From Myxococcota bacterium (GTDB taxonomy: Bacteria > Myxococcota_A > Polyangia > HGW-17), in contig DAIRVS010000001.1 of NCBI GenBank assembly GCA_036802685.1, forward strand, positions 14,804 through 78,803: a DNA stretch of 64,000 nucleotides, given 5' to 3'. Made by a program: the position numbers and the translations under genes. Position 1 is the stretch's first letter. The number at the start of each line of letters is the position of its first letter. A model generated the notes under the pieces. That model did no database searches. It was not told where the DNA came from and was given only the letters and a program-made list of their open reading frames with translations. Positions 4,936 through 59,495 of the stretch are shown piece after piece.

Positions 4936-6198
4936 TCAGAACGAGAAGCCCACGGAGAGTCCGCCGGCCTGGCCGGTGAAGAACGGCAGGAAGGTCACCG
5001 CGCCGTCGTCGGCGCCGACCTGTCCCTGGACCTCCGGCTCGGACGAGAGATAACCCTTGTACAGGAAGAACGTGGAGACCAGGCCCACCGTCACGCCCGC
5101 GGCCACCAGGATGTTGGTGTACATCGCGAAGGACTGGCCCTTGTCGCAGGTGTCCTTCATGTCGGCGGTCGGGTTCTTGCAGACGTCGTTGACGCCGGCG
5201 TACGAGGCCGGATCCGCCTTCATGATCTTGTCCTTGTCGTCCTCGTAGGCCAGCACCTGCAGGCCCGTGTAGGTCCCAGCGCCGATGAGCACGACGGCCG
5301 TGGCGGCCGTGGACCAGAAGCCCACCTTCCACAGGTTCATGGGCTTTCCGGGCTCCTCGGGCTTGGGCGGCGTGACGCCGGGATCCTTGCCGTCCGGGTC
5401 CTTCACGTCGGGATCCTTCACGTCCGGGTCCTTCACGTCCGGGTCCTTGACCACGGGGTCCTTCGGCGTCGGGTCCTTGACCACGGGGTCCTTCGGTGTC
5501 GGATCCTTGGGCATCACGGCCGCGGGGAACTCGACCTTGACGATGGTGGTCTCACCGGCCTTGATGGTGACCGAAGTCTTCCACTCGGCACCGGACTTGC
5601 TCTTCACGACGATGTTATGCGGCCCGGGGGTGATCGAGGGGATCACGTTGGCGCCCGGGATCGTGGACATGACGAAGACGTTGTCGATGAAGACCTTGGC
5701 GTCGGCCTCGAGGCAGGAGATCTCGAGCTTGGCCACCTTGGGCTGGAACTGGTTGTTCCAGGCCTCGGTCAAGAGTTTGGGGAGCTCGGCCTTCTTGCTC
5801 TGGGGCACCGAGACGTTGGCGAACTGGAAGGTCTTGTTGACGTAGAAGAAAATGGTGACCTTGAACTGGCTCGCGTCCTTGGTCACGCGGCCGGTGACCA
5901 GCACGTCGACCTGGAGGTTGGTCGCGATCTTGGGGATGCACTTCTGCGGATCCTCTTCCTCGCAGTAGAGCAACTTGTTCTCTTCGAGCTCCGACGGCGG
6001 CCCCAGCTTCCAGTCGGCCTGCTTCTTGGCCAGATCCCGCAGCGTGTTGGTCGCGGTCTTGCCCAATTGGACGTCTAGGCCGGCGTCCACCTCGAACCCC
6101 AGCACCACCGCCTTCTTCGAGCTGGCCAGCGCGGGCGTGCAGAACGTGAAGATCAGGAGAAAAGCCGCTAGTTGTCGTGAGAACATCGTCGCCTCCAT
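4936..6198 (-). CDS. Secreted PEGA-domain protein with (KDPxV)n charged repeat tract and C-terminal two-TM anchor module
   Basis: Start moved to MEATMFSRQ... at 6198, giving a signal peptide ending ALASS. The PEGA-like segment reads VFIDNVFVMSTIPGANV...GPHNIVVKSKSGAEWKTSVTIKAGETTIV. KDP repeats follow. Hydrophobic segments occur near the C-terminus. Confidence 0.75.
   Translation of the reverse strand: MEATMFSRQLAAFLLIFTFCTPALASSKKAVVLGFEVDAGLDVQLGKTATNTLRDLAKKQADWKLGPPSELEENKLLYCEEEDPQKCIPKIATNLQVDVLVTGRVTKDASQFKVTIFFYVNKTFQFANVSVPQSKKAELPKLLTEAWNNQFQPKVAKLEISCLEADAKVFIDNVFVMSTIPGANVIPSITPGPHNIVVKSKSGAEWKTSVTIKAGETTIVKVEFPAAVMPKDPTPKDPVVKDPTPKDPVVKDPDVKDPDVKDPDVKDPDGKDPGVTPPKPEEPGKPMNLWKVGFWSTAATAVVLIGAGTYTGLQVLAYEDDKDKIMKADPASYAGVNDVCKNPTADMKDTCDKGQSFAMYTNILVAAGVTVGLVSTFFLYKGYLSSEPEVQGQVGADDGAVTFLPFFTGQAGGLSVGFSF
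5381..5510 (-). repeat. In-frame tandem 15-bp repeat encoding (P/V/D)KDP(T/V/D)V units
   Basis: gggtccttcacgtccgggtccttgaccacg... periodicity seen directly. Confidence 0.8.
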
Positions 6199-6376: not shown

Positions 6377-8339
6377 TCATTTCCTTACAACGCGAAAGCC
6401 GGTGACGTAACTCAATCCCGTAGGAGAGTATCCTCCTCGATAGGACACTGAGCAGTAATTCGCCGTACTGGCCCAGTTTCCACCGCGACGAACGCGGTTG
6501 GTTCCTGTAGCCGACCCTCGATAATCCGTAACGGTTCCCGTTGGGTAGGTGCCGAAATAATCCCACATCCATTCCCATACGTTTCCGCTCATATCAAAAA
6601 TTCCGAGTTCGTTGGACAACTTGGTGCCCACGGAATTACTTCGTCCCGTTGTGGTTCGGCCAGTCTCACTTGTGTTGTACCCGAACACCGCATAATCCAT
6701 GATGGGGTTTGATCCTGTGCTTCCAGCGAATACCTTCATGAACCCGGTCGTGTTCGTGGCGCCCGGGGCAGCCGTGTCAGCGCCCATCGCCGCCCACATC
6801 CACTCCATTTCGGTTGGCAGCCGATACCCATCGGCTGTCCAGTTCGCCGTCGCTGCGTCCCAATCGGCGTTCGTGTCCATCGGAATCTGATCGTAAGTCA
6901 GACTGTTAAAATCGACACCGATGACTGAGTAAACTGGCGTCAACCCCCTCTAAAAGACTCAATTTGTTGCAGAAAGCAACCACCCTATACCATGACACAC
7001 TTTGCACAGGGTCGCTCATTCCCCCCGAAACCGATGGATCGCTCGGGTCCAGCCATCCCGTCACGGCCATCCATTGGGCTCGGGTAATTTCGTATTGGCT
7101 TATCCGAAAAGCCGACACAATGCTAAGGTTCGGTCCCATCGTGTCCCGCTGGAAAGTTCCGGCTGCAACATAGACCATCGTTCCGATGTTCTGGCTCTGG
7201 TAATTCATCGTGCAAGTTGATGTCACAAACCCGGTACAACCTGAATTGCAGGTGAGCAGTCCGCTGGCGAAACCCCGCGTGACACATGTCTGTCCATTCA
7301 GGTTCGATCCATCACACGTCTCACTTTCATCGATCATTCCGTTGCCGCACATCGTGCAAGTGGACGTGACAAACCCAGTACAGGCTGGGTTGCACGCGAG
7401 TGACCCGCTGACGAAGCCTTGTGTGACACAGGTGTGGCCATTTAAATTTGATCCATCACAAGTCTCACCATAGTTACCCTGGATGACTCCGTCACCGCAA
7501 CGCCCTGCCAAGACACAGGAAGTGTCGTCGAAGGCCTGGCAATCTGTGCTGCAAGAGAGCGTTCCTCCATACCAACCTTGAGAGACGCAACTCTGCCCGT
7601 TCATGTCTGCTCCGTCACAGGTTTCACCGCCATCGATTGCTCCGTTGCCACACATCGTGCACCCACCTGTAAAAAACTCCGAACATCCGGCATTACATAC
7701 CAGCGTACCGCTGACGAAACCCTGCGAGAAACAAGTCTGTCCATTCAAATCCAGTCCATCGCAAACTTCCTCATCATCCACAGAGTCATTGCCACAGTTC
7801 GTGCACCCCGACGTATCGAACGCTGTGCACTCCGAATTGCAACCAAGCACGCCGCCATAAAAGCCGAGCGAAGTACACGTCTCGTCATCCAGATCCGTGC
7901 CGTCGCAGGGTTCAAACGGACTCGCAGCCACGAGGTCCCCACATTCCGCCGTCAGTTCGCACAGAGAGACGTCCCAACGGCACACGTCCTTGCATCCGAG
8001 CACACCACCACCCAACCCCAACTCCGAGCAGGATGTATCTGCCAAATTGACACCATCACATTGCTCTCCATGGACTGTTTGGATGGCTCCGTCCCCGCAA
8101 CGCCCTCCTGTGCACACCGCGAGGTTGAACGTGCAATCGCTTCGACAGGTTAAAACACCTTCTTGCCCATAGTAGCCCAAGTCCGCGCACGTCGCGGCTG
8201 TCATCGCATCACCGTCGCACTCCTCGCCCGGATCCAAGAAATCGTCGCCACAGGAATCGACGTTCTTCGTCTTCGTATCGCAGCCCCACACCAGCAGACA
8301 GGTGCCCAACAGCATCGAGATCAAGGTCCTTATGGTCAT
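6377..8339 (-). pseudogene. Frameshifted paralog of the lipoprotein / Myxococcus Cys-rich repeat / FGE-sulfatase domain protein
   Basis: Two overlapping minus ORFs (6906..8423 and 6377..6943) together align with the intact paralog 29324..31327. The break is at a G5 run (forward c5 at 6943-6947): gagggggttgacgcc here versus gaggggttgacgcc in the paralog, a +1 frameshift. Start MTIRTLISMLLGTCLLVWGC at 8339 with GGAGGA RBS. The gene has markedly lower GC than its neighbours. Confidence 0.7.
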
Positions 8340-8490
8340 GGCGGTCCTCCAGAGGATGGAAAAAGCGTAGTCGGTTCCCGCATCACGGTCAAGCATCAGA
8401 ATTTCCTCCATTTCCTGGTACAAGATCCATGAAGCGGACCCTGACCCGCCGATACCCCAATTTTTTTTAACAAAAACAAGCAGTTAGACC

Positions 8491-11492: not shown

Positions 11493-12692
11493 ATGCTCGT
11501 GTTCGTGATCAACTGCGGTTCTTCGTCGATCAAGTACCAGCTCTTCGAGATGCCCGAGAAGCGCCAGCTCGCCCGCGGCCTGCTCGAGCGCATCGGGGAG
11601 ACTGGTTCGGCGGTGCTCACCCACCGCGCCGGCGAGGGCAAGTGGATCCTCGAGGTGCACGCGCCGGATCACCGGGCCGGCCTCGACCACATCCTGCGGA
11701 CGCTGGTCTCCGGGGAGACCGCCGTCATCGACGACCTGTCCAGCATCCGGGCGGTGGGCCACCGCGTGGTGCACGGCGGAGAGCAGGTCCGTGAGGCCGT
11801 GGTCATCGACGCCGCGGTGGAGGACGTGATCGCCGGGTGCGCCGAGCTCGCCCCCGTGCACAACCCGCCCAACCTCATGGGCATCCGCACCGCGCGGGCC
11901 GTGCTGCCGGACTGCGTCCAGGTGGCCGTGTTCGACACCGCCTTCCATCACACGCTGCCGAAGAAGGCCTACCTGTACGCCCTGCCGCTGGAGCTCTACG
12001 AGCAGCACCGCATCCGCAAGTACGGCTTCCACGGCACCTCCCACGAGTACGTCGCCCAGGAGACCGCCCGCCGGCTCGGGAAGCCGCTTTCGGCGTGCAA
12101 CCTCATCACCTGCCACCTGGGGAACGGCTGCTCGATGACCGCCATCGAGGCCGGTCGCTCGGTGGACACCTCCATGGGGATGACGCCGCTGCAGGGGCTC
12201 ATGATGGGCACGCGCAGCGGCGATCTGGACCCGGCCGTGCTGATCCACCTGCTGCGCAACGGGTGGGTCGCCGACGTCGCCGAGCTCGACCGCCTGCTCA
12301 ACCGCAAGTCCGGCCTGGCCGGCATCTCGGGGCTCGGCAACGACATGCGCACCCTCGAGGAGCACATGGAGACGAACGAGCGGGCCAAGCTGGCCGTGGA
12401 AATGTTCGCCCACCGGGTGCGCTTCTACCTGGGCGGCTACCTGGCGCTCCTGGGTTCCTGCGACGCCGTGGTCTTCACCGGCGGCATCGGCGAGAACGAC
12501 TCCCTGCTGCGCCGGCTCGTGCTCGAGGGTCTCGCCCCGCTGGGCCTGGAGCTGGACCCGGCGGCCAACACCGCCACCGTGCGCGGGAAAGAAGGCGCGA
12601 TCACCACCGCGGCGAGTCGCATCCCGGCGCTGGTGATCCCCACCGACGAGGAGGGCATGATCGCCGCGAGCACCTACGCCCTGGCCCGCTAG
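11493..12692 (+). CDS. ackA: Acetate kinase
   Basis: N-terminal VINCGSSSIKYQLF hallmark. Full-length 399 aa. GGAGG RBS. Confidence 0.95.
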   Translation: MLVFVINCGSSSIKYQLFEMPEKRQLARGLLERIGETGSAVLTHRAGEGKWILEVHAPDHRAGLDHILRTLVSGETAVIDDLSSIRAVGHRVVHGGEQVREAVVIDAAVEDVIAGCAELAPVHNPPNLMGIRTARAVLPDCVQVAVFDTAFHHTLPKKAYLYALPLELYEQHRIRKYGFHGTSHEYVAQETARRLGKPLSACNLITCHLGNGCSMTAIEAGRSVDTSMGMTPLQGLMMGTRSGDLDPAVLIHLLRNGWVADVAELDRLLNRKSGLAGISGLGNDMRTLEEHMETNERAKLAVEMFAHRVRFYLGGYLALLGSCDAVVFTGGIGENDSLLRRLVLEGLAPLGLELDPAANTATVRGKEGAITTAASRIPALVIPTDEEGMIAASTYALAR

Positions 12693-12842: not shown

Positions 12843-14870
12843 TCACAGGGAATAATCGTCCACGGGGAGGATCACGCGGCGGGGCACCAAGGCGGCGGTG
12901 GTGGTCAGGTTCCCCAGCTGGCCTTCGGAGTTGTGGCCCCAGCAGTACAGTTCGCGGTCCGCAGTGAGCCCGCAGGTGTGGGTGACGCCGGGAGAGACGG
13001 CGTTGAACCGCAGATCGGTGACGACCGTGGTGGCCGTACTGCGATTCGTAGTGGTGCCGTCGCCGAGCTGGCCGTACTGGTTCCACCCGAAGCACAGGGT
13101 GGTCCCCAGCACGCCGTGGAGCAGACAGGTGTGGGAGCCGAAGGTCCACGTCGCCGCGGCGTCGATGTGGCCGTCGATCTGCACCGGCGTGAGACGGTTG
13201 GTGAAGGTGGCGTCGCCGAGTTGGCCGTAGTTGTTCAGGCCCCAGCAGTATACGATCCCGCCGGTGGTCCGGGCGCAGGTGTGGCCCGTGCCGCAGGTGA
13301 CGGTGGCGATGTTGGTGAGGGAGGAGATGGCCACCGGCACCCGGGAGTCCGTGGTGTTGCCGGTGCCGAGCTGGCCATTGTCGTTACGACCCCAGCACAC
13401 CCCGTTTCCAGTCTGATTACGCAAACAATTGTGTTCGTAGGAGCTTGAGATTTGAGTAGCCAAAGACACCCCCGAGACCTGCACCGGCACCGCGCTCGAG
13501 GTCGTCGAGTTGTTGCCCAGTTGGCCCCGGGCGTTGTCCCCGAAGCACCACGCGGTCCCGAGGAGGGTCAGGACGCAGGTGTGCCGAAAGCCCAGGCCCA
13601 GCTGGATCGCGTTGGTGAAGATCCCCGCCCGCACCGGCAGGGACGAGTGGGCGGCGATCCCGTGGCCCAACTGGCCCGAGTCCCCCCGGCCCCAGCACCA
13701 CACCTCGCCGCCGGCGCGCAGGGCGCAGGTGTGGAAGTAGCCGGCCTGCACCGCGGTGACGTCCTCGAGGCCCTGGACCAGCACCGGTCCGGTCCGGTCC
13801 GCGGTGGTGCCGTCGCCGAGCTGGCCCATGGAGTTGTCCCCCCAGCACAGCACCCGTCCGGTGTTCAGCAGGGCGCAGGTGTGCAGGTAGCCCGCGGACA
13901 CGGCCACCGGATACCGGAGGCGGTTGCACAGGTACTCCTCGCGGGTGACCTCGGGATCGCCCAAAACGCCGTCCCCGTCGAGGTCCAGCCCCGTCTCGAC
14001 GAGCACGCCGCCATAGGGGCAGGCGCCGCCCCACTCCACCGTCGTCAGCCGGGTGAGGGCGTTGTGGCCGTGGCACACGGCCTGTTCGTCCTGGACCTCG
14101 CCGTCGCCGAGGGCGCCGTCCCCGTCGGTGTCCAGCCCCGTCTTCACGAGGAGACCGCCCTGGGGACAGGGCGCGCCCGGCGCCAGCGGATCCACCCGCA
14201 CCAGGGAGTTGGTCCCGACCGTTCCGTCCTCGCCGGGGGCCCCATGGCAGACATAGGAGACGTCGTCCACCTCCAGCGGTCCGAGGACGCCGTCGCCGTC
14301 GTCGTCGAGGCCGGTGGAGACGGCCAGGCCGCCGTGCAGGCAGTTCGCGCCGGCGGGCTCGTCCAGAATGCTCACCAGGGAGGCGGGACCGCCGCCGGTG
14401 CCCGACGCGCTCTGGCAGACAAGGTTTGAACTCGTTCGTTCGTCTTCATCCAGAACCGCATTCCCGTTCTGGTCCAGACCCCAGTAGTAACGCTGGCCGC
14501 CGTTGGGACACTCGACGCCGGGGGCGAGCTCCTCCACGTGGAGGAGCGTGGACAGCCCGTCCCGCCCGTCCTGGCCGTCCTGGCCGTTTTCACCGTTTTC
14601 ACCGTTTTCACCGTCCTCGCCGTCGTCGCCGGGGAGCCCGTTGCAGACCGTCTGGATGCTCTCGATCTCGCCGGTCTCCAGGGCCCCGTTGCCGTTGGTG
14701 TCCTTTCCGGCCATGACCACCATACCCCCATACGGGCACTGGATGGACGAGGCCGACTCGATGAGCACCAGGGTGCCCTGGCCGTCCTGGCCGTCCTGGC
14801 CGGTGCAGGCCAGGAGCGCCCAGAGCAGCGACGACGTGAGCAGCAGACGGCGATGGAACAACTTGCGCAT
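12843..14870 (-). CDS. Lipoprotein with collagen-like G-x-y tracts, five ~45-aa CPxGG / D-x-D-G-D-G (Ca-binding-like) repeats and a C-terminal RCC1-repeat beta-propeller
   Basis: Start [22 protein letters not shown] at 14870 (codon 132 of ORF 12843..15263). Eight or more CWGxNxxGQLGxG RCC1-type repeats. GQDGQDGQG and [19 protein letters not shown] tracts are present. Confidence 0.8.
14563..14640 (-). repeat. In-frame 9-bp tandem repeat encoding [16 protein letters not shown]
   Basis: ggccgttttcaccgttttcaccgttttcacc seen directly. Confidence 0.8.
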
Positions 14871-15025
14871 GGAGACCTCCGAAGCGGCGGGAGCCGTGGA
14901 AAAATGGGGTGGACGCTGCTTATCCAATAGGCTGGAAAAGTCAAGCTGAATCCGTGCGCCCATTGTCGTCCCCCCGCGACCGCGGTTGCGGAAAAATGTG
15001 AAAAAGTGAAAACGGAAAGCACCCG

Positions 15026-15646
15026 TCAGCGGTGATACAGGACGAGCCAGCCGGCCAGAGCCCCCAGGGCCAGCGCCAGGGCGGCGACCTGCCACCGGGG
15101 GAGCGCCAGGGCGGCGGCGAGCCAGGCCGTCGGCCCCAGCCGCGGCGGGCGCAGGCGGAACGCCGGGAAGCCGGCCCCATCGTCGTCGGGCCAGAGCGGC
15201 TTCAGGGTGGCCCTCAGGGCGTCGAGGTCCGCCGGACGCCGCGCGCGGGTCCTGGCACAGCACGCCCCCAACAGGTCCCGCGTCGGGGCGTCCAGGTCGG
15301 CGACGGCCCGCCAGGCCCGGGCGGCCCCGTCGTCCAGCGCCCAGTGGGCGTATTCCATGGACGCCGGCGGGGGCACCGCGGCGGCCGGATCGTCACGCAA
15401 GGCCAGCAGGACGACGCCCAGCACGTACAGGTCCGACCGCACGTCGGGGCGCCCGTGGGAGAACAGGAGCTCGGGCGGCGGGAACTGCCAGTCGGCGCGG
15501 CACGGCGGACCGGTGAAGCGCGTCCCGGGGCGGTGCGACAACTCGGCGCCGACGTGGGCGGCCAGGGCCACGAGGGTGGCGCCTTCGGCCGGCCGCTCGA
15601 GATACGTGAAGCACCCCGGCAGGGTCCGGGCGGGGTCGGCGGGCAT
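15026..15646 (-). CDS. Kinase C-lobe-like fragment protein with C-terminal TM helix (truncated Ser/Thr-kinase-derived; possibly a pseudogene)
   Basis: ORF begins 7 nt after the rex stop. GC3-rich. [26 protein letters not shown] resembles kinase subdomains VIII-IX. There is no N-lobe, HRD or DFG. The C-terminus is hydrophobic, [29 protein letters not shown]. Confidence 0.4.
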
Positions 15647-20768: not shown

Positions 20769-22730
20769 ATGGCCGAGCCTTCCCTGACAGCCCCTGAAGC
20801 CTGGTCCGAGATCGTCATGGGGAACACCGCCATCGTGCGCGCCATGGCCGTCTCGGGCACCCGCGTGGTGACCGCCTACCCCGGGTCGCCCACCCCCGAG
20901 ATCGCCGAGGCCATCGGCCGGATCCCCGCCGGGGAGCGGCCGTTCTTCTTCGAGTTCTCGACCAACGAGAAGGTCGCCACCGAGGTGGCCTTCGGCGCGT
21001 CGATCAACGGCCACCTGGCCTGCGTCTTTTTCAAGAGCGTGGGGCTCAACGTGGCCGCGGACACCTTCGTGCAGTTGTCCATGATGGAGCTCGTCGGCGG
21101 GATGGTGATCGTCCTGGGCGACGATCCCGGCTGCAACTCGAGCCAGAACGAGCAGGACAACCGGCACCTCGCCCGGCTCTGCTACACGCCGGTCTGGGAG
21201 CCCATGGACCCGCAGGAGGTGCACGACATGTACCTCGAGGCCGCCGCCTGGTCGCAAGAGCAGCACATGCCCGTGATCCTGCGGCTCTCCACCCACGTGT
21301 GCCACGCCAAGATGCGCGTGCGCTCGGCGGCCTTCACGCCGGCGCCGCACAACGACGCGCCCCGGTTCGACCCCGCCGCCGGCCCCTATCTGCCGATCAC
21401 CAAACTGGTGGCCCCCCTCAAGCGCCGGGCGCTGGAGAAGCTCGAGCGCACCCGGGAGAAAGCCGAGACCACGCCGTTTTTGAAGGTCCTACCGGGCGTT
21501 CCAGGCACCCGCCGCGGCGTGATCACCGCCGGGCTACCCACGGCCAGCCTGCTCGAGGTCCTCGAGGGCAGCGCCCTGGGACAGGGCGTCGAAGGTCCCC
21601 CAAACGTGCTGCGCCTGGGCCTGGTGCATCCCCTGCCCGTGCGCGCCGTCACCGACTTTCTGCGGTCCCACGACGAGGTCAAGATCCTCGAGGAGCTCGA
21701 CGACTTCCTCGAGCAGGGCGTCGTCGCCGCCGCCTACCGGGCCGGCCTCTCGTGCCGGATCCGGGGCAAGGAGGACCGCGAGGAGTGGATCGGCGAGTAC
21801 ACGCCACCCAAGGTCCGCGAAATCCTGCACGCCACCTGGCCCGAACTCATCCCGGCCGCCGCACCCGCGACGCCGGGTCCGTCGCCCGACGCTCCGTCGG
21901 TCGACGCTCCGTCGGCCGACGCTCCGTCCGCCCGGGCCCCCCAGATGTGCCCGGGCTGCGGCCACCGCAGCGCTTTTTACGCCATCTCCCAGGCGCTCGC
22001 GGCCGAGGACATCACGGTGGCCGACATCGGCTGCCACACCCTGGGCTTCCTGCCGCCCTACCACATGGGTCAGGTTCTCCTGTGCATGGGCGCCTCCTGC
22101 GGCATCGCGGCGGGCCTCTCCCTGTTCCAGCGGTCCCGGCGGGTGGTCGCCTTCCTCGGCGACAGCACGTTCTTCCACGCCGGCCTCCCGGGGGTGATCA
22201 ACGCGCTGTTCAACCGCCACGACTTCACGCTCATCGTCATGGAGAACGGCACCACCGCCATGACCGGACACCAGGCCCACGCCGGCTCCGGCGAGAACTT
22301 CAACGGCCCGACGACGGCGATTTCGATCCGCGACCTGCTCGTGTCCCTGGGCGCCACCGTGCGCGAGGTCGACACCTATCAACAGGCGAAACTGACCCAG
22401 CTCGTACGCGAAGCCAACGAGGCCGGCGGATTCCAGGTGGTCATCGCGCGCCACCCGTGCATGCTCGCCCACCAGCGCCGCGAGACGAGGAAGCCCGGCT
22501 TCGTGAAGCGCCAGGTGCGGATCCTGGCGGAGAAGTGCGACCAGCGGCACGTGTGCGTGAAGCAGTTCGGCTGCCCGTCGTTCTTCCTCGAGCCCTCGGG
22601 CGCCGTCCACGTCAACGCGGACCTGTGCATCGGGGACGGCTCCTGCCTGCAGACCTGCCCCACGAAGGCCATCGCCCCGCCGGCGCCCGTGAAACAGGAG
22701 ACCGCGCCCACGAAACAGGAGGCGCCATGA
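20769..22730 (+). CDS. iorA: Indolepyruvate:ferredoxin oxidoreductase alpha subunit (TPP-binding plus 2x[4Fe-4S] ferredoxin domain)
   Basis: N-terminal TPP-enzyme regions are present. C-terminal CDQRHVCVKQFGCPSFF...CIGDGSCLQTCP is ferredoxin-like. Contains a PDAPSxDAPS low-complexity insert. Confidence 0.85.
   Translation: MAEPSLTAPEAWSEIVMGNTAIVRAMAVSGTRVVTAYPGSPTPEIAEAIGRIPAGERPFFFEFSTNEKVATEVAFGASINGHLACVFFKSVGLNVAADTFVQLSMMELVGGMVIVLGDDPGCNSSQNEQDNRHLARLCYTPVWEPMDPQEVHDMYLEAAAWSQEQHMPVILRLSTHVCHAKMRVRSAAFTPAPHNDAPRFDPAAGPYLPITKLVAPLKRRALEKLERTREKAETTPFLKVLPGVPGTRRGVITAGLPTASLLEVLEGSALGQGVEGPPNVLRLGLVHPLPVRAVTDFLRSHDEVKILEELDDFLEQGVVAAAYRAGLSCRIRGKEDREEWIGEYTPPKVREILHATWPELIPAAAPATPGPSPDAPSVDAPSADAPSARAPQMCPGCGHRSAFYAISQALAAEDITVADIGCHTLGFLPPYHMGQVLLCMGASCGIAAGLSLFQRSRRVVAFLGDSTFFHAGLPGVINALFNRHDFTLIVMENGTTAMTGHQAHAGSGENFNGPTTAISIRDLLVSLGATVREVDTYQQAKLTQLVREANEAGGFQVVIARHPCMLAHQRRETRKPGFVKRQVRILAEKCDQRHVCVKQFGCPSFFLEPSGAVHVNADLCIGDGSCLQTCPTKAIAPPAPVKQETAPTKQEAP
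21881..21930 (+). repeat. In-frame 15-bp x3 tandem repeat (PDAPSVDAPSADAPS) inside iorA
   Basis: gacgctccgtcggtcgacgctccgtcggccgacgctccgtcc seen directly. Confidence 0.75.
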
Positions 22731-27329: not shown

Positions 27330-27390
27330 AAAACCATTGCACGGACTCGGGTTCGGTGCTTTCCTGTTCCTGTCGGAAGGAGACACCATC

Positions 27391-28236
27391 ATGCCGGGAC
27401 CCATCGCCCTCTGCCTCGAGAACTGCTACCCCGCCCACGAGAGCCTGCGCTACCTGCGCTGCGTCGCCCTCTCCGGCGCCGAGCCGGCCCTGTCGATCCT
27501 GCCCGGCGGCGAGATCGAATGGCACCAGGAGACCCCCGGACACGGCCAGTTGTGGGTCAGCGCCGACGAGCGGCTGATCTTTCATCGCCCCTCCGGCAGC
27601 GTCGGCTGGGCCCAGGTGCACCGCGGCGGCCGCCGGGTGGAGGTCCCCGAGGGAAAGCCGGTGGTGCTCCTCGACGGCGACTACCTCGTGGTTCCCGGCT
27701 TCTGCTACCGAATCCACGTCCACGGCCCGGCCGGCCAGATCCACGAGCCCACCTATTTGGATGGGCAGGATCCCGCGCGCCAGGAGCCCGCCCGGCACAC
27801 CCGCCACCGGCTGGCCGCCGCCGGTCTGGTGGCCGTCGCCACGCTCTTCGGCGCCCAGGGGGCGTGCACCACGGAAAAACCGGTGAACGAGAAGCCCGAG
27901 CCCCGGGAGGCCGGCGACCCCGGCCCCGACCAGCCCATGCCACCGGTGGACGAGCCGGACATGAAGCAACCGGTCCAGCCCGACATCGACGTGCGCGATC
28001 ATCCGCCCGCGCCGCTGCCCCCGGACGGCTACCGGAACATCCGCCCCGCGAACGAGTCCCTGGGCACGGTGGCGCCGCCGGCCGCGCCGCCGCCCATCGA
28101 GGTGCGCGTCGCGCCGCCCAAGCCGGCCCCGCCCATGAACCCGCCGCCCATGAAGGGCGACATGAAGGGCGACATGAAGGGCGACATGGACGAGGACGGG
28201 GAGGAAGACGGGGATCCGGTCCCGCCCATGAAATGA
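27391..28236 (+). CDS. Hypothetical membrane protein with Pro-rich tail and KGDM x3 repeat
   Basis: Start MPGPIAL at 27391 with GGAAGGAGA RBS. One TM segment (LAAAGLVAVATLFGA). Low-complexity C-terminus. Confidence 0.55.
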   Translation: MPGPIALCLENCYPAHESLRYLRCVALSGAEPALSILPGGEIEWHQETPGHGQLWVSADERLIFHRPSGSVGWAQVHRGGRRVEVPEGKPVVLLDGDYLVVPGFCYRIHVHGPAGQIHEPTYLDGQDPARQEPARHTRHRLAAAGLVAVATLFGAQGACTTEKPVNEKPEPREAGDPGPDQPMPPVDEPDMKQPVQPDIDVRDHPPAPLPPDGYRNIRPANESLGTVAPPAAPPPIEVRVAPPKPAPPMNPPPMKGDMKGDMKGDMDEDGEEDGDPVPPMK

Positions 28237-28345: not shown

Positions 28346-29308
28346 ATGAAACTCACCGTCTCGCTTCTGATCCCGTTGCTCCTGATCGCCGCCTCCCCCG
28401 CCCGCGCCCAGGAGATCGTCTGCCCCAAGCCCACCGCCAGCCTCGAGGACAACAAGAACGAGGCCCGCCGCTACTTCAACATGGGCAACACGTACTTCAA
28501 CATGAAACAGTACGACAAGGCCGCCGCCTCGTTCCGCTGCGTCATCGGGCTCGTCCCCTACTCCGTCATGGCCCGCTACCGCCTCGCCATCTCCTACGAG
28601 CAGCTCGGCAAGGTCGCCCTCGCGCTGGAGCAGTTCCAGTGGGTGGTCGCCGACGCCTCGGACGAGGCCAAGCCGCTCCACGCCGACGCCCAGAAGCGCA
28701 TCGAGGCCGCCGAGAAGGCCGCCGCGGACGCCAAGGCCAGGGCCGACGCCGAAGCCAAGGCCAAGGCCGACGCCGTCGCCAAGGCCAAAGCCGACGCCAA
28801 GGCCAAAGCCGACGCCGACGCCAAGGCCAAAGCCGACGCCAAGGCCAAAGCCGACGCCGACGCCAAGGCCAAAGCCGACGCCAAGGCCAAAGCCGACGCC
28901 GACGCCAAGGCCAAGGCCGACGCCGACGCCAAGTCCCGACGCGAGACCCCGGGGACCACCCCCTCCCCCGCCGGCGGCCTCACCTCCCGCTGGTGGTTCT
29001 GGACCGGCGTGGGCGCCACCGTCCTGTTCACCGGCGCCACGGTGGTGCTCGGCCTCACCACGCTGGACCTCCAGAAGCAGTGGGAGGCTGACTGGGACCC
29101 CGAGGACCGCTCAAAGCTCGAGGACTTCCGGCTCTACACCGATCTCGCTTTGGGCGCCACGATCGTGTCGGCCGCCGCCCTGGGCGTGACCCTCTTCCTC
29201 ACCCGCGGCGACCGCGCCCCGAAGGGCCCCGCGGACACCACCGGCTGGCACGTCTTCCCCTCCTGCGGCCCCGACGGTTGCCAGTTGACCCTTTCCCTGG
29301 GATTCTAA
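28346..29308 (+). CDS. Secreted TPR-like protein with (AKADAK)n repeat tract and C-terminal two-TM anchor module (WWFWTGVGA...)
   Basis: Signal peptide [24 protein letters not shown]-like [21 protein letters not shown]. Repeat tract and TM segments read from the ORF. Confidence 0.75.
28730..28935 (+). repeat. In-frame 18/30-bp tandem repeats encoding ([10 protein letters not shown])n
   Basis: gccaaggccaaagccgacgccgacgcc... seen directly. Confidence 0.85.
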
Positions 29309-29323: not shown

Positions 29324-31327
29324 ATGCGCACCCTTTCTAATTTATTCATTGTCTCCATTTTCAGCGTCCTCTCCGCCTGCACGCTCCTGGTCGAGGTCAA
29401 GGACAAACCGACCAACAACGGAAATGGCACCTGCGGTGACGGCGTGAAGAACGGCACCGAGGCGTGCGACGAGGAAGACCTCGGTGATCAGACCTGTGGG
29501 TCCCTGGGCTTCGACCCCACCGATGGCGGCGTCCTCACCTGCAACGCCAATTGCACCTTCGACACCTCCGGCTGCGGCGGAAGCGTCTGCGGCAACGGGA
29601 TCCTCGAGGAGGGCGAGGCGTGCGACGACGAACAACTCGGCGGCGCCACCTGTGTGACCCTCGGGTACACGGGAGGCCTCCTGGCGTGCAACGGAGAGTG
29701 CCAGTTCGACGTCTCCGAATGTGCCGGCGGCTTCTGCGGCAACGGCTACATCGACGCCGGCGAAGCCTGCGACGGCGAAAACCTCAACGGCTTCACCTGC
29801 GAAAGCCTGGGCCTGGGATTCGTCGAGGGCGACCTGCGCTGCGCCGATGACTGCACCTTCAACACCTCGCAGTGTGAAGGGGCCGAGACCGAGACCATCT
29901 GCGACGACGGCGCCGACAACGACAACGACGGCAAGACCGACTGCGCAGACCCGGACTGCCTGAACGAAGATCATTGTGGAGCCGAAGAATTCGATTGCCA
30001 CGACGACAACGACAACGACGGCGACGGCATGATCGACTGCGAAGATCCCGAATGCGCCAACGAGCCCATGTGCATGATCGATAACGAGATCTGCAACAAT
30101 GGCGTTGATGACGACGGCGACGGCAGCATCGATTGCTGGGACTCCGGCTGCATGGGCCATCCGGGCTGCTCGATGGGGACCTGCGGTGATGGGACCGTCA
30201 ACTACCCCAGCGGCGAGCAGTGCGACGGCGCCAACTTCGACGGCGAGGATTGCATCTCCCTTGGATACATGGGCGGCACCCTGAATTGCTTCCAGTTCAC
30301 CTGCCAGTTCGATGTCTCCGGCTGCATCGGCAACGGAGTCTGCGGCAACGGGATCATCGAAACGCCCGAGGAGAGCTGCGAAGGCGCCAACCTCAACGGG
30401 AAAGACTGTTTCACCATGGGCTTTGCCGGAGGCGGTACCCTGACCTGCGGAACGGACTGCCAATACATCGTCAGCGGGTGCACGCACAACCTCTCCTCCA
30501 CGTTCATCGGAAACCTGGTGTACGTCCCCGGGGGGACCTTCCTGCGGGACACGGATCCTTCGAACCTGAGCACGGTCTCGTCGTTTTACATGAGCCAGTA
30601 CGAGATCACGCGGACCCACTGGACCTCGGTGACGGGGTGGCCCGACCCCAGCGATGTGAGCCGCTCGAGCGGTCCGGGAGACCCGGTGCAGATGGTGAGC
30701 TGGTACGACGCGATCGCTTTTTGCAACAAACTGAGCCTGCAGGAGGGGTTGACGCCGGTGTACTCGATCTCCGGCGTGAACTTCCAGACCCTGACCTACG
30801 CGCAGATCCCGACCGCGGACGACGTCAACTGGAACGCGGTGACGGCGGACTGGGGGGCGAACGGGTACCGGCTGCCCACGGAGATGGAGTGGCTGTGGGC
30901 GGCGATGGGCGGAGACACGGCGGACCCGGGCAACGTGAACACGGACGGTTTCATGAAACTGTTCGCGGGGCACTCCGGCACCAACACCATCGGGGACTGT
31001 GCGGTGTTCGGCTTCTATTCCAGCGAGCCGGGCCGCACGATGACCGAGCGGACCAACCCGGTGGGTTCGAGGTGCGCCAACGAGCTGGGCATCTACGACC
31101 TCTCCGGGAACGTGTGGGAGTGGATCTGGGACTGGAAGCAGGATTCTTTCCCGACCGGAGACCTGACGAATTACCGGGGCCCGGGCGTCCCTGGCCCGGG
31201 CGGCGGCCGCGTGGGGCGTGGCGGCAGCTGGGAGAATTCCTCTCCCTCCTGCGCCCTGAACGACCGTGGCGTGGGCATGCCGAACATCCGGTACTTCAAC
31301 TTCGGGTTTCACGTGGTCCGTAAATGA
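29324..31327 (+). CDS. Lipoprotein: Asn-rich tether, ~9 Myxococcus cysteine-rich repeats, C-terminal FGE-sulfatase (formylglycine-generating-enzyme-like) domain
   Basis: Lipobox VLSAC. Repeats CGNG..E.GE.CD...LGG.TC.TLGY.GG.L.CN..C.FD.S.C (TIGR02232-type). The C-terminal part aligns with the frameshifted paralog at 6377..8339. Confidence 0.85.
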   Translation: MRTLSNLFIVSIFSVLSACTLLVEVKDKPTNNGNGTCGDGVKNGTEACDEEDLGDQTCGSLGFDPTDGGVLTCNANCTFDTSGCGGSVCGNGILEEGEACDDEQLGGATCVTLGYTGGLLACNGECQFDVSECAGGFCGNGYIDAGEACDGENLNGFTCESLGLGFVEGDLRCADDCTFNTSQCEGAETETICDDGADNDNDGKTDCADPDCLNEDHCGAEEFDCHDDNDNDGDGMIDCEDPECANEPMCMIDNEICNNGVDDDGDGSIDCWDSGCMGHPGCSMGTCGDGTVNYPSGEQCDGANFDGEDCISLGYMGGTLNCFQFTCQFDVSGCIGNGVCGNGIIETPEESCEGANLNGKDCFTMGFAGGGTLTCGTDCQYIVSGCTHNLSSTFIGNLVYVPGGTFLRDTDPSNLSTVSSFYMSQYEITRTHWTSVTGWPDPSDVSRSSGPGDPVQMVSWYDAIAFCNKLSLQEGLTPVYSISGVNFQTLTYAQIPTADDVNWNAVTADWGANGYRLPTEMEWLWAAMGGDTADPGNVNTDGFMKLFAGHSGTNTIGDCAVFGFYSSEPGRTMTERTNPVGSRCANELGIYDLSGNVWEWIWDWKQDSFPTGDLTNYRGPGVPGPGGGRVGRGGSWENSSPSCALNDRGVGMPNIRYFNFGFHVVRK

Positions 31328-31342: not shown

Positions 31343-33139
31343 ATGCGTACCGTTAATAATTTGCTTATCATCTCCTGTCTCGGCGTCCTCTCCGCCTGCT
31401 CCCTCCTCGTCGAGGTCAAGGACCGACCGGCCAACAACGTCAACAACGTCAACAACGCGAACAACACCAACAACGCCGTCTGCGGCGACGGCGTGGTGAC
31501 CGGCGGCGAGTCCTGCGACGAGGAAAACCTCAACGGCCTCACCTGTCTGGACCTGGATTTCGCGGGAGGTTGGCTGCAGTGCACCGCCGATTGCAGTTTC
31601 GACACTTCCGAATGCTCCGACGCACCCGTCTGCGGGGACGGGCTCCGGTCCGAGACCGAGCTCTGCGACGGCGAGGATCTCGGCGGCCAAACCTGCGAGA
31701 GCCTGGGCCGGGGCTTTATTGAGGGCCAATTGTATTGTAAAGAGGATTGCGCCGATTTCGACACCACCCAGTGCGTCGGCGGGGGAGAGATCTGCGACAA
31801 CCTGATGGACGACGACGGGGACGGTGATACCGACTGCGCCGACGCCGACTGCGCCTCGCTCCCGATCTGTACGGGAGGCTCCTGCGGAAACGGGCTGATC
31901 GAAGGCGAGGAAGAGTGCGACGGGGACAACCTCAACAACCTGCTGTGCGAGGACTTCGGCTTCACGCCCGGCGGCGCGCTCGATTGTGACGGCCCGTCCT
32001 GCAAATTCATCTTTTCGGGATGTACCTACACCTCCGGCATGTCGCCGCCGAACGTGATCGTCGCCGGCGAATCCCACACCTGCGCCGGCTCGTCCGAAGG
32101 CGTCTACTGCTGGGGGTACAACGATCATGGACAACTCGGCACCAACACCTCTTTCATGTACCGCCCCACCCCGGGCCAAAAAATCGATTTCAATGGTATA
32201 GAGCTTGGAACCTCTGCTCTGGCCGCCGGGGGTGCCCACACCTGCATGGTCTCCGATAACGCGGGTATGTACGGTCACCTCGTGTGTTGGGGCGCCAACT
32301 CCCACGGCCAGCTCGGCACCGGCTCGGCCGGCAACGACTCGGCGCCCGTGAATGTCGGCGGGACGAACACCTACTCGGACGTGGTCGCGGGCCGGGAACA
32401 CACCTGCGCCCTGCGCACCGACGGCAAGGTGTTCTGCTGGGGCAGCAACCTGCGCGGCCAGCTCGGGTTGCCCGGCGCGGGGACCCTCGTCCCCAGCCCG
32501 ACCGAAGTCACCAGCATTTACAATGTCACCTCGCTCTCGGCGGGCTACCACCACACCTGCGCGATCCAGGAGGAGACGGCCGGGCAGGGGGAACTGTTCT
32601 GCTGGGGCGACAACACCGAGGGCCAGATCGGAAACGCGGATTGGACGGACGTGATCGAACAACCCACGGCCATCACGGATCTGACCTTCGTTCAGAAGGT
32701 CGCCTGCGGGGAACGACACACCTGCGCCATCGCGGAGGGGAGCAGCGTGTGGTGCTGGGGCGCCAACACCGAAAGCCAGCTCGGCATGGGAGGATCCGGC
32801 TCCAACTTCCCCCAGCAGGTCGGGGATCTCCAGGCGTTCCAGATCTGGGCCGGCGCCAATCACACCTGCGTGATCACGGACGCCATCGGATCGGTGTCCT
32901 GCTGGGGCCGCAACGTCCACGGCCAGATCGGCGTCGACCACACCCAGCCGGTGGGCAGCCCCGTGCCATTGACGATCGGAGATTTCATGATGCTGGGGGG
33001 CGGGGGGGACCACACCTGCGGCATCATCAATGTTGGTGGCACCTTCAAGGCCTACTGCTGGGGCGCCAACTGGTTCGGCCAGTTGGGCCAAGGCAACACC
33101 GCCACCAACCCCTCCCCCTGGCCGGTGCTCGGGCAATGA
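31343..33139 (+). CDS. Lipoprotein: same leader and Asn-rich tether, ~5 Myxococcus cysteine-rich repeats, C-terminal RCC1-repeat beta-propeller
   Basis: The first ~30 codons are near-identical to the 29324 gene ([27 protein letters not shown] vs MRTLSNLFIVSIFSVLSACTLLVEVKD). CWG.N..GQLG repeats occur 7-8 times. Confidence 0.85.
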
Positions 33140-55584: not shown

Positions 55585-55728
55585 GTGGCCGGCACTCCTT
55601 GCAGCCTTCAACGCCATCCTGGCGAGGCCGAGCCTTCGAATCGTCGGGGGAAAGTCGAAGGTGAATCGAATATACCTAATAATTGGGTATAAACAAGACC
55701 CATTATGGACCTCCCTCGGAATGATTTT

Positions 55729-56301
55729 TTAGCGATGGAGGACGTGGACCTCGACGTCGGTGGGATCCCGGGACAGCAGGCTCATGGCGGTCAGCCCTCC
55801 CACGATCACGCCGACACCGGTCCAGAAAAGCCAGTTCCGATAAAAGGGCGGCGGTGCCGCGCCAACGCCGGGGCGGGTGCGGACGGAATCCGGCCGCTGG
55901 AGTAGGAGGACCAGCTCTTCGGCCAGTTGGCCCCGGGGACCGGGCACAGGGAACGGACCGGCGAAGACGTCCCGGGGTCCCTGAACGAACAGGCCGCGGG
56001 CAGTCAGGACCACCCAGCGGTCGAGGCGAAGTTGGAACCGATGTTTTTCCAACACGGCCCTAACCAACGGATCGGGATACTCTCCGACGGCCTGCAGCGT
56101 CGAGCGCAGCGCGGTCAGCCGGCCCTCGGGCAGCTCCCCCGGGGAGACGAGGCGCAGGCCCGGATGGAGCTGGAGCATCGTCCGGATCCGCTCGAGGGCG
56201 CCGGCGTCCCCAACCTCGAGGGGCAGGAGCGCCACCGACGGCCGCGGCTCCGCCGAGGGCTGGGAGACGAACATCAGACACAGGAACAGCCAGCTCGTCA
56301 T
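55729..56301 (-). CDS. Hypothetical secreted/membrane protein with C-terminal WLFWTGVGV TM segment
   Basis: Signal-like N-terminus. Shares the W.FWTGVG motif with the 28346 TPR protein. Confidence 0.55.
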   Translation of the reverse strand: MTSWLFLCLMFVSQPSAEPRPSVALLPLEVGDAGALERIRTMLQLHPGLRLVSPGELPEGRLTALRSTLQAVGEYPDPLVRAVLEKHRFQLRLDRWVVLTARGLFVQGPRDVFAGPFPVPGPRGQLAEELVLLLQRPDSVRTRPGVGAAPPPFYRNWLFWTGVGVIVGGLTAMSLLSRDPTDVEVHVLHR

Positions 56302-56334
56302 GATCGATCACCTGTACCGGGTGGGGGGAGCGCT

Positions 56335-57603: not shown

Positions 57604-57610
57604 GGTCGCC

Positions 57611-59329
57611 TCAGTAGTGGAGAGTCATGCCCAGACCGGCCCCGCCTTGCAGCATCAGGGGTTCCCAGGTCACCTGCCCCCCCTCGGGGACAGTCTGCAG
57701 ACGGATCCGGGAGTCCGGGCTCGTGTCGATGAACGTGCGGTAGAGCGCCACGGCGAAGGACAACGCGGAGACGCCGTAGAGCACGTTCGCTGCGATGGCG
57801 TAGATCTTGCCGTCCTGCAGGCGCGCGTCGTTGCTGTACACCGGGATCCCCGCATCCAGGTCGGCCTGGTAGTCGTCCTTCAAGGAGACAGACTTGCCCC
57901 CGGCCCAGATGCCCGCTCCCAGGGCAGCCAGCCCCAGCACGTACCCCGAGATGGCGCCCGTGCGGTCCGGCGCCCGGTTGAGCGTGACCTCGTAGGACTT
58001 CTGCTCGCCCGGGGCCACCTCGACGCGGGTGGACACCGCCTTGCGATCCTTCTTGACGATGCGCAGGCGGTGGGCGCCGGCGGGGATCTTCACCCTGGAA
58101 CAGGGCGCCACGCAGACGGTCTTCCCGTCCACCTTCACCCGGGCGTCGCGCACGTTGCGCCCGAGGACGGTGAGGTAGCCGATGGGCTGCCGCTCCAGCG
58201 GGACGTGCACCGTGTTGCTCTCGCCGGCGGACACGTCGATCTCGCGCTTCTCGCCCCGGTATCCGTCCTGCTCCACGTACACCGTGTGCTTGCCGGGCGG
58301 GAGCACGCCGTTGTAAGGCGTGTGGCCCACGGGACCGATGTCCTTCTTGTCCACGAACACCTGGGCGCCGGGCACGTTGCTCGTGATCTGCACCCACGCC
58401 ATGTTCACGTCCTTCTTCAGGCTGACCATGATGTCGAGCATCCGGTTCTCCTGGACGTGGATCTCGCGCCGGATGTCCGAGAACCCCTTCATCTCGACGA
58501 TCAGGACGTGCTTGCCCAGGGGGATCTCGCCCTCGAACGGGGAGGTGCCGAGCTTCTCCTTTTTATCGTTCAGGTAGAGCGCGGCGCCCGGAGGATCCGT
58601 GGAGACCGCGGTCAGCGTGCGGGTGGCGATGGGCGGCAACTCGGGCTTCTCCAGAGGCGGCGCGGGCTTGTCCGCAGGCTTGTCCGCAGGCTTGTCGCCC
58701 GGCTTGTCCACGGGCTTGTCGCCAGGCTTGTCCACGGGCTTGTCGCCAGGCTTGTCGCCAGGCTTGTCCACGGGCTTGTCGCCAGGCTTGTCGCCCGGCT
58801 TGTCTGCAGGCTTGTCGCCCGGCTTGTCCGCAGGCTTGTCGCCCGGCTTGTCCGCAGGCTTGTCGCCAGGCTTGTCGCCAGGCTTGTCCACAGGCTTGTC
58901 CCCAGGCTTGTCCCCCGGCTTGTCCACGGGCTTTTTCAGGCTCTCCTTGTACTCGATGAGCCGATCGAGCAGCCGGATGCGCGCCTGAATGGACGCGAGC
59001 TCCTTGGTCTGGGGATCCTTGGCGAGGAAGTCGACGAAGTACTGCTTGGCCTGCTCGTACTTCTCCACTTTTTCATAGCAGACCGCGATGTTGAACAGGA
59101 ACGCCGGCAGGGGCTTGGCCTCGTAGGCCTTGAGGAAGGACTCGGCCGCCTTCTCGAACTGGCCCGCCCCGAAGAGGGCCTGACCGGCCTTGAAGTGCTC
59201 CTTGGCCTTCTCGGTGGCCTCGTCCTTTCTCGACTTGCTGTCGCCGCCTTTCTGGGCCATGGCGCCCGACGGACAGGCGGCGATCAGGATCAGGGAGAAC
59301 CAAAAAGACAGGAAATGTCTGGTTTTCAT
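57611..59329 (-). CDS. Secreted TPR protein with (DKPG/A/V)n repeat tract, three PEGA domains and C-terminal two-TM anchor module
   Basis: Start MKTRHFLSFWFSLILIAACPSGAMA at 59329. PEGA-like units around PGAALYLNDKKEKLGTSPF, PGAQVFVDKKDIGPVGHTPY and ARVKVDGKTVCVAPC. Confidence 0.8.
   Translation of the reverse strand: MKTRHFLSFWFSLILIAACPSGAMAQKGGDSKSRKDEATEKAKEHFKAGQALFGAGQFEKAAESFLKAYEAKPLPAFLFNIAVCYEKVEKYEQAKQYFVDFLAKDPQTKELASIQARIRLLDRLIEYKESLKKPVDKPGDKPGDKPVDKPGDKPGDKPADKPGDKPADKPGDKPADKPGDKPGDKPVDKPGDKPGDKPVDKPGDKPVDKPGDKPADKPADKPAPPLEKPELPPIATRTLTAVSTDPPGAALYLNDKKEKLGTSPFEGEIPLGKHVLIVEMKGFSDIRREIHVQENRMLDIMVSLKKDVNMAWVQITSNVPGAQVFVDKKDIGPVGHTPYNGVLPPGKHTVYVEQDGYRGEKREIDVSAGESNTVHVPLERQPIGYLTVLGRNVRDARVKVDGKTVCVAPCSRVKIPAGAHRLRIVKKDRKAVSTRVEVAPGEQKSYEVTLNRAPDRTGAISGYVLGLAALGAGIWAGGKSVSLKDDYQADLDAGIPVYSNDARLQDGKIYAIAANVLYGVSALSFAVALYRTFIDTSPDSRIRLQTVPEGGQVTWEPLMLQGGAGLGMTLHY
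58668..58930 (-). repeat. In-frame 15-bp tandem repeat (~17 units) encoding DKPGDKPADKPV...
   Basis: ggcttgtcgccaggcttgtccacgggcttgtc... seen directly. Confidence 0.9.
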
Positions 59330-59495
59330 GGCTGTCTCGTTCACGGTTTCCGGCCGGGAGCGGCCATACACCCCACAGAAATAGCACAAGTCGACGGGAT
59401 GTGCATGTGTTAAGTCCCGGCGGGTTCGGCGGAAATTGCACCTACATTTGACTCCATTGGAGTACTGTGGTACACAAACACCTAGGGAGGTGCAC

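Follow-up and report, generated by a model that had tools for sequence, protein, structure and literature searches.

Three proteins encoded on a 64,000-nucleotide stretch of a Myxococcota bacterium genome (GTDB lineage Bacteria; Myxococcota_A; Polyangia; HGW-17; GenBank assembly GCA_036802685.1, contig DAIRVS010000001.1, positions 14,804 to 78,803 of the forward strand; hereafter the window) end in C-terminal modules of about 130 residues that, judging by profile comparison, are homologous and make the three a true paralogous family. The module comprises two hydrophobic helices, connected by a variable cap and followed by a tail with a predicted β-hairpin. Our favored explanation, moderately probable as a whole, is that the three are Sec-exported, non-lipoprotein envelope proteins of a family defined by this module (about 130–140 residues across the family), which would embed the protein in a membrane, with a lean toward the outer membrane. 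Interchangeable periplasmic binding domains (LpoB/TolB-N-like plus PEGA, or TPR with or without PEGA) would be joined to it via low-complexity spacers that turn over through tandem-repeat expansion and contraction. The three proteins (A, B, and C) and a fourth candidate (D) are:

Protein A: 4936..6198, minus strand; 420 residues, identical to the 416-residue database protein P0001.
Protein B: 28346..29308, plus strand; 320 residues; signal peptide, TPR with a Cys pair, Ala/Lys/Asp repeat, C-terminal module.
Protein C: 57611..59329, minus strand; 572 residues; signal peptide, TPR, DKPx repeat, three PEGA domains, C-terminal module.
Protein D: 55729..56301, minus strand; 190 residues; a single hydrophobic segment (55771-55833) starting NWLFWTGVG.

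All four coordinates correspond to existing open reading frames (ORFs). Their third-position guanine-plus-cytosine (GC) content of 0.83–0.94, in a window of 66.7% GC, marks the coding frame. The likelier start of A is Met5 (4936-6186), in agreement with the 416 residues of P0001.

A C-terminal module shared by three exported proteins

A preliminary description of the window had proposed a paralogous family with a shared C-terminal two-helix module, and alignment of the C-termini above background was set in advance as its test. A, B, and C align with Smith-Waterman z scores against shuffled sequences of 7.7 (A–C), 5.3 (B–C), and 4.6 (A–B). Hydrophobic segments inflate such scores, pairwise identities among the modules are only 18–25%, and BLASTP E-values range from about 1e-4 to 1, all of which would suit a chance likeness of unrelated hydrophobic C-termini. 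A less circular test therefore used a profile of 103 external A-type modules, with no window, B-type, or C-type sequences included. Against the 637 stop-to-stop ORFs of the window, its top three matches were, in order, A (2e-43), B (7.5e-7), and C (6e-6). The match to B falls in two collinear pieces (helix 1, and helix 2 plus tail) and that to C covers helix 2 and the tail; an A-family profile also matches C, with an E-value of 4.8e-5. The external profile thus singles out exactly these three proteins, collinearly and including the non-hydrophobic tail, and the modules have in common the motifs [RK]xxFW[TS], TG.Q, TN.L, and P....G.G and a terminal aromatic residue. Chance likeness is accordingly rejected for A, B, and C, for which it would be extremely improbable, though not for D.

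D had been counted as a fourth relative on account of a W.FWTGVG signature at the start of its hydrophobic segment. It comes next in the external-profile ranking with a non-significant E-value of 1.1, lacks a second helix or tail, and resembles B only in the local start of helix 1; hhalign gives a weak match (33% probability) to the start of the A-type N-terminal domain. Its membership is unsupported. The literal W.FWTGVG motif occurs in B and D and is absent from A and C, the family consensus being [RK]xxFW[TS].

Exhaustive searching of 1.84 billion representative proteins with a mixed profile (A3; the window modules and a few close relatives) gave 404 matching proteins at E ≤ 1e-3, of which 136 reach E ≤ 1e-10. 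The match nearly always extends to the last residue of the protein, and the family comprises no fewer than 404 clusters at 50% identity. The family needed an exhaustive profile search to become visible, as word-indexed searches with the B or C module alone returned one close relative each. Every traced source is a metagenome-assembled genome (MAG) of Myxococcota, carrying the labels Haliangiales, Polyangia, Kofleriaceae, "Deltaproteobacteria," or "Myxococcota bacterium." The taxonomic range was only sampled, by means of a narrower alignment (A5) that led to six loci, all in Myxococcota MAGs. The single named member is labeled "PEGA domain-containing protein." No Pfam or NCBIfam model covers the module or any of the C-terminal regions of A–D, a profile search of solved structures gave only chance matches to transmembrane helices, and the literature on the PEGA domain, whether by itself or in combination with Myxococcus and periplasm, yielded nothing relevant. 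The module is an undescribed domain family.

Pfam identifies PEGA in 82 of 115 full-length members, CarboxypepD_reg in 68, PF11684 in 31, and TPR families in about 21; mixed architectures (TPR-plus-PEGA, TPR-only, and others) occur with either module subtype. An N-terminus resembling a signal peptide with an Ala-x-Ala-type site is found in 111 of 121 full-length members, and a lipobox-like motif in only five. Where members seem to lack a signal peptide, the gene call is truncated or frameshifted; they are not topological variants. The NCBI protein P0009 (439 residues) matches A in patches, with the remainder Arg-rich and out of frame, and looks like a frameshifted A orthologue. The description line of PF11684 (DUF3280) reads "DUF2380," the literature name for PF09533 (SitA6 lipoprotein toxins), and can mislead look-ups; a lead followed under that name was dropped, the literature concerning a different family from the PF11684 found in members.

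The order in A is signal peptide, LpoB/TolB-N-like domain, PEGA-like sandwich, KDPxV spacer, and C-terminal module. The parts of the three proteins are as follows.

A, signal peptide: 6124..6198, minus strand; residues 1–25 (...PALA/SS), read from the sequence.
A, α/β N-terminal domain: 5746..6117, minus strand; residues 28–151, with a conserved Cys pair.
A, PEGA-type β-sandwich: 5533..5733, minus strand; residues 156–222.
A, disordered Pro/Lys/Asp spacer: 5335..5517, minus strand; residues 228–288, nine K-D-P-x-x units, predicted local distance difference test (pLDDT) score <50.
A, C-terminal module: 4939..5334, minus strand; residues 289–420.
A, parts of the module, minus strand: helix 1, 5215-5334; cap with Cys340/Cys351, between the helices; helix 2, 5047-5166; linker; β-hairpin ending in Phe, 4939-5001.
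B, signal peptide: 28346-28408, plus strand.
B, Ala/Lys/Asp repeat spacer: 28706..28933, plus strand; residues 121–196, with three identical 42-nucleotide units.
B, C-terminal module: 28955..29305, plus strand; residues 204–320; helix 1 (WWFWTGVG...), a 26-residue acidic loop without Cys, helix 2, and tail hairpin.
C, signal peptide: 59255-59329, minus strand; also lipobox-like (LIAAC).
C, (D-K-P-G/A/V) x22 spacer: 58661..58927, minus strand; between TPR and PEGA domains.
C, three PEGA domains: 57989..58612, minus strand; about residues 240–447, matched by Pfam PEGA in three stretches (117 bits).
C, C-terminal module: 57614..57973, minus strand; residues 453–572, no Cys, ending ...GLGMTLHY.

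Each protein thus has the signal peptide, TPR and/or PEGA domain, and in-frame repeat first described for it, with the PEGA domain of A lying below threshold in Pfam. PEGA (PF08308, gathering cut-off 20.8 bits) scores 117.2 bits in C and 14.1 in A, and is not matched in B; in A it is supported by a β-sandwich predicted at the same place by AlphaFold2 and by its occurrence in those 82 of 115 homologues. TPRs are identified in B (38.6 bits on TPR_1, PF00515; cut-off 27.8) and C (36.1 bits on TPR_2, PF07719; cut-off 27), and Pfam has no TPR match in A. The signal peptides of A and B have Ala-x-Ala cleavage sites. The fold of the A N-terminal domain is similar to those of FlgT, the TolB N-domain, PelC, CsgG, HpaA, LpoB, and TraT, all of them envelope proteins. 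C orthologues are P0013, P0106, and P0136.

In the family consensus, the module starts with W-[RK]-x-x-F-W-[TS] and continues as an Ala/Gly/Thr/Val-rich helix ending T-G-[LM]-Q-V, followed by S-x-E-D-D-K. The cap is variable, usually with G-x-N-D-[AV]-C ... L-x-D-x-C-D-x-G. Helix 2, also hydrophobic, starts A-x-x-T-N-[VI]-L-I-G and closes with an aromatic belt, [YF]-F-[YW]-[YW]-[KR]-G-[YF]. A linker, often Arg/Lys-rich, leads to the C-terminal consensus V-x-V-x-P-x-x-x-P-x-G-x-G-L-G-x-L-x-F. Of 148 proteins, 141 terminate in Phe, with hydrophobic residues at positions −2, −4, and −6 and a frequent Gly at −5. A loop of about 25 residues between the helices had been proposed; the stretch measures 26–44 residues in the window proteins and 5–90 (median 56) across the family.

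AlphaFold2 modeling of A (416-residue numbering) from a 92-sequence alignment gave a mean pLDDT of 85; an earlier model from only 10 sequences was much weaker. The model comprises an α/β domain (residues 24–147), a β-sandwich (152–218), a disordered linker (224–284), two long antiparallel helices (285–324 and 341–380, pLDDT 87–96), and a β-hairpin (strands 396–403 and 408–415, pLDDT 67–79), which is joined to helix 2 through residues 384–392 at pLDDT <50. Both helices have small residues with i, i+4, i+8 periodicity: Gly, Ala, Thr, and Ser predominate at profile positions 15/19/23/27-28 of helix 1 and at 78/82 and 84/88/92 of helix 2. Mean pairwise identity over the 92 sequences is 0.37 and 0.39 for the two helices, 0.28 for the N-terminal domain, and 0.24 for PEGA; among close orthologues the helices reach 0.89 and 0.83, compared with 0.72 for the N-terminal domain and 0.82 for PEGA. 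A passive anchor would not usually be so well conserved, which suggests specific intramembrane contacts, so the helices probably pack specifically against other helices, in copies of the same protein or in a partner. Since its conservation exceeds that of the attached domains, the module probably forms the functional core of the family.

Turnover of the repeat spacers

The spacers of all three proteins are tandem arrays, as identified with Tandem Repeats Finder:

A array: 5374-5509; 15/30-nucleotide unit, score 146; KDPxV x9.
B array: 28715-28942; 6/18/42-nucleotide unit, 92% matches at period 42, score 335; AKADAK-type, about 76 residues.
C array: 58665-58933; 12 nucleotides x 22.4 copies, score 328; DKP[GAV] x22.

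The A array contains runs of AAGGACCCGGAC. In B, the 42-nucleotide units are identical, and in C the 22 DKPx units are encoded by only nine nucleotide variants. Near-identity of the units at the nucleotide level argues for recent expansion by slippage or unequal recombination, and the slippage-driven diversification suggested at the outset is supported. The signal peptides place the repeats outside the cytoplasm, as had also been proposed. A repeat followed by a transmembrane segment had been described for all three proteins; this order holds for A and B, and in C the array lies between TPR and PEGA rather than beside helix 1.

Comparison across relatives shows that orthologues differ in repeat unit and copy number. 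A orthologues (62–85% identity) have linkers of 49–63 residues with 2–9 K-[DE]-P units, and the dominant unit varies by lineage (KDPDV, KDPVV, KEPTV, or TDPDT). B orthologues keep the TPR and the module, with linkers from about 10 to about 90 residues that are Ala/Lys/Asp repeats, Glu/Arg/Lys-rich and helical, Pro-rich, or almost absent. The C orthologue P0136 has a non-repetitive Lys/Asp/Asn-rich linker where the DKPx array sits. At least three tandem units ahead of helix 1 are found in only eight of 108 members; the repeats are a lineage-specific state, not a family trait. Of the spacer or ruler function proposed for them, the spacer part is supported. A ruler of fixed length is not, since B-orthologue linkers vary so widely in length and switch in type, except perhaps within the A orthologue group. 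The spacers show cleanly, in a natural setting, how tandem repeats turn over in periplasmic linkers.

Other tandem repeats with units of 6–27 nucleotides lie within coding regions at 2056-2142, 14557-14631, 31430-31477, and 36432-36483, so in-frame expansion may be a general habit of this genome, not specific to the family. Just upstream of B, a Pro-rich 299-residue ORF (27337-28236, plus strand) with no Pfam match contains an exact 12-nucleotide x 3.3 repeat (MKGD units) at 28149-28188.

Membrane placement of the module

The preliminary description had the PEGA and TPR modules projecting from the inner membrane. This was an assumption, and several features of the module sit poorly with the cytoplasmic loop that it entails. 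Cysteines are paired throughout: among 141 modules, 133 have two, four have none, and four have four, and the number is never odd. The pair of A-type modules is located in the cap, and its two columns are the only invariant ones in the 92-sequence alignment. The four modules with four Cys have an extra, closely spaced pair, each in a different context (CGNDAFC, CTPTHPC, CPEGSSEAIC, and CAAGSGTC). In all 15 B-type modules the pair is instead in the tail, at positions (Cys307 and Cys312 in B) that flank the turn of the hairpin and align to residues 403 and 408 of the A model, on either side of a predicted four-residue β-turn. Pairing in both cap and tail is the pattern expected of disulfides and argues against a cytoplasmic cap. 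With a net charge of −2.9, the cap is acidic, and its ND.C and D.CD.G motifs are conserved; an acidic charge combined with Asp/Asn residues next to cysteines is typical of extracellular calcium-binding modules. Basic residues are conserved on the N-terminal side of helix 1 (88% Arg or Lys) and the C-terminal side of helix 2 (77%), and E-D-D follows helix 1 directly. This asymmetry is the reverse of the positive-inside rule and likewise opposes a cytoplasmic cap. The C-terminus is an alternating hydrophobic, amphipathic strand ending in Phe, like the β-signal of outer-membrane proteins. Cys pairs, acidic cap, charge asymmetry, and β-signal-like end together make an inner-membrane assignment doubtful.

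From these features we infer that the N-terminal domains, cap, and tail are all extracytoplasmic. The module could then not be a conventional inner-membrane hairpin whose loop is cytoplasmic, and a spanning hairpin would fit only the outer membrane. The simplest consistent placement would be across that membrane, the cap exposed on the cell surface and the C-terminus on the periplasmic side. It is tempting to speculate that the module represents a novel type of outer-membrane anchor, namely a non-lipidated, Sec-exported helical hairpin with a disulfide-stapled acidic cap at the surface and a β-signal-like hairpin, although so specific a combination is rather unlikely to be right in full. The surface cap might bind calcium, and the hairpin ending in Phe would serve targeting or assembly, perhaps via the β-barrel assembly machinery (BAM) or an oligomeric barrel. 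An outer-membrane helical hairpin in a non-lipoprotein would, if true, imply an undescribed route of outer-membrane insertion.

Several points weigh against this explanation. The known α-helical anchors of the outer membrane, TraT and the glycine-zipper proteins SlyB and YfgH (PMC11733297; bioRxiv 10.64898/2025.12.22.696046), are all lipoproteins, unlike the module family. The parity of the cysteines reflects few independent evolutionary events, and a cytoplasmic metal site formed by Cys and Asp is a possible alternative to a disulfide. No partner gene conserved next to the family was found across the neighborhoods compared, and nearly all members are metagenome-derived. The default stop for a Sec substrate with two hydrophobic helices is the inner membrane. 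Summed helix hydrophobicity on the Hessa scale (about +2.2 kcal/mol) lies inside the range of inner-membrane transporter helices from the same genomes; the use of hydrophobicity as an argument against inner-membrane retention was dropped for this reason.

A conventional helical hairpin of the inner membrane, its loop in the cytoplasm, its N-terminal domains and tail in the periplasm, and a spacer projecting PEGA/TPR outward, is accordingly a serious contender, if not a likely one. A signal peptide plus two hydrophobic segments of at least 20 residues is its standard signature, the helices share a range of hydrophobicity with AbgT and major facilitator superfamily (MFS) transporter helices in the same organisms, and we know of no export route for the hydrophobic helical hairpins of non-lipoproteins. 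Lys plus Arg counts are indecisive (6.5 in the loop; 7.2 in the N-flank plus tail). This arrangement would nonetheless put in the cytoplasm both the invariant Cys pair and the four extra pairs, each gained independently, would violate the positive-inside rule through the E-D-D after helix 1 and the basic periplasmic flanks, would require many members to translocate a basic tail, and leaves the near-invariant terminal Phe unexplained. Helices that do not span a membrane at all, their apolar surfaces buried in a periplasmic homo-oligomer or partner (a helical bundle or lipid-conducting tube) that is closed by the hairpins, would fit all of the cysteine evidence, conservation of the helices above what a passive anchor needs, and the small-residue periodicity of both; the N-domain fold relatives PelC, CsgG, FlgT, and TraT form rings. 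This remains improbable, given that both helices are apolar on every face over about 22 residues and flanked by aromatic belts, as is typical of lipid-exposed segments. The hairpin might also be mainly a tag, ending hydrophobic-x-Phe, recognized in the periplasm by a PDZ-type protease or stress sensor (DegS-, Prc-, or CtpA-like). DegS-type PDZ domains read C-termini with such a hydrophobic pattern, and the terminal Phe and alternating hydrophobics resemble these; the low-confidence linker by which the tail is attached would also suit a tag. Some 20 residues kept as a hairpin, with an invariant Pro, a Gly-rich turn, and the B-type Cys staple, exceed the needs of a PDZ ligand, and no PDZ protein is among the conserved neighbors, which leaves the tag the least plausible of these three alternatives. 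Overall, the outer membrane is our tentative first choice for the location of the module, the inner membrane ranks next as a substantial possibility, and a non-spanning or other arrangement is less likely again. The patterns of cysteine and charge and the terminal Phe make this a sharp, testable question.

Genomic context and relation to known systems

Upstream of A lies an FGE-sulfatase-type gene, and downstream come genes for a metallophosphatase and a 218-residue protein; close A orthologues retain the order FGE-sulfatase, A, metallophosphatase, 206/218-residue protein. The gene upstream of A (6377-8483, minus strand) appears to be split into two overlapping ORFs in different frames: 6909-8483 (minus strand, 525 residues), with no Pfam hit and a 144-nucleotide repeat at 7206-7468, and 6377-6943 (minus strand, 188 residues), whose match to FGE-sulfatase is confined to the C-terminal part of that domain. 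At the orthologous locus (L010) there is a single 650-residue gene, Cadherin-like plus FGE-sulfatase, suggesting a frameshift, pseudogene, or assembly error in the window. At six further loci (L003-L008, from Polyangia or Haliangiales MAGs) a distant A-type homologue is divergent to a HAMP-HisKA-HATPase histidine kinase, and at four of these a class I (Trp/Tyr-type) tRNA synthetase gene also follows it. These adjacencies could reflect either plain synteny or a functional link.

B is followed, 16 base pairs on, by a gene for a Cys-rich FGE-sulfatase protein and then one for an RCC1-repeat protein; at the locus of a B orthologue (L009) the RCC1 gene follows directly. Three large, secreted-looking proteins of the window (29324-31327, 31343-33139, and 12843-15263), two of them directly downstream of B, have Cys-rich repeats joined to FGE-sulfatase or RCC1, and one contains five DUF7151 repeats. 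C heads a same-strand string (52459-59329, minus strand) that continues with an FG-GAP protein (56335-57603), D, and a 1052-residue Ser/Thr kinase with zinc-ribbon, AAA, and TPR domains, the gaps being 7, 33, and 111 base pairs. A PilZ-domain gene (59436-59840, plus strand) lies divergently upstream of C. Elsewhere in the window, a hybrid-cluster (prismane) protein (59909-61540), a pyruvate:ferredoxin-oxidoreductase-like enzyme (20769-22730), and an acetate kinase (11493-12692) hint at an anaerobic or microaerobic lifestyle of this myxobacterial lineage.

Existing PEGA and TPR database labels describe only the variable N-terminal parts of these proteins and leave the family-defining module unannotated. 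MYXO-CTERM and PEP-CTERM tags are a short motif, one hydrophobic helix, and a basic cluster at the very C-terminus, in contrast to the two helices of the far longer module (about 130–140 residues) and its hairpin ending in Phe; no NCBIfam sorting-tag model matches A–D. The terminal aromatic residue (Phe in nearly all proteins), alternating hydrophobics, and Gly five residues upstream recall the β-signal of outer-membrane β-barrels. These have at least eight strands, however, and the module is predicted to have a single hairpin of two eight-residue strands.

Small-xxx-small periodicity in both helices is reminiscent of Gly-zipper two-transmembrane proteins (SlyB/Pcp). The module helices are much more hydrophobic than those of SlyB, and the module differs from both Gly-zipper proteins and TraT in its long cap with a Cys pair and its additional C-terminal β-hairpin. 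Gly-zipper proteins (SlyB/YfgH/OsmB) and TraT are lipidated; the module family is not, judging by its few lipobox-like motifs. No Gly-zipper Pfam model matches A–D at E ≤ 1, and the 25 families found most often in 115 members include none.

A membrane anchor, low-complexity spacer, and distal interaction domain are also found in TonB and TolA, whose spacers are Pro/Lys/Glu-rich and Ala/Lys/Glu helical, respectively. The polarity of the module family is opposite, with the anchor C-terminal behind a cleavable-type signal peptide and made of two helices plus a β-hairpin. Pfam scans of A–D and 115 members contain no TonB_C or TolA C-terminal domain, and no ExbBD or TolQR genes are adjacent to A, B, or C. 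B scores 37.9 and 31.8 bits against the TolA models TIGR02794 and NF007065, below their cut-offs of 59.45 and 213, and the match is to the repeat only (residues 106–198).

The N-terminal domain of A shares its α/β fold with LpoB (the outer-membrane lipoprotein activator of PBP1B), TolB-N, PelC, and FlgT. Unlike that group, the module family would be anchored by a C-terminal protein module and not an N-terminal lipid, and a PEGA sandwich follows the N-terminal domain; the LpoB and TolB_N models each match two of 115 members. By analogy, the design of anchor, spacer, and interaction domain resembles that of LpoB, TonB, and TolA, although the searches above assign the family to none of these systems nor to the Gly-zipper proteins. 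Modular proteins that hold binding domains off a membrane, such as TonB, TolA, LpoA, and LpoB, are central to the coordination of envelope layers in diderm bacteria.

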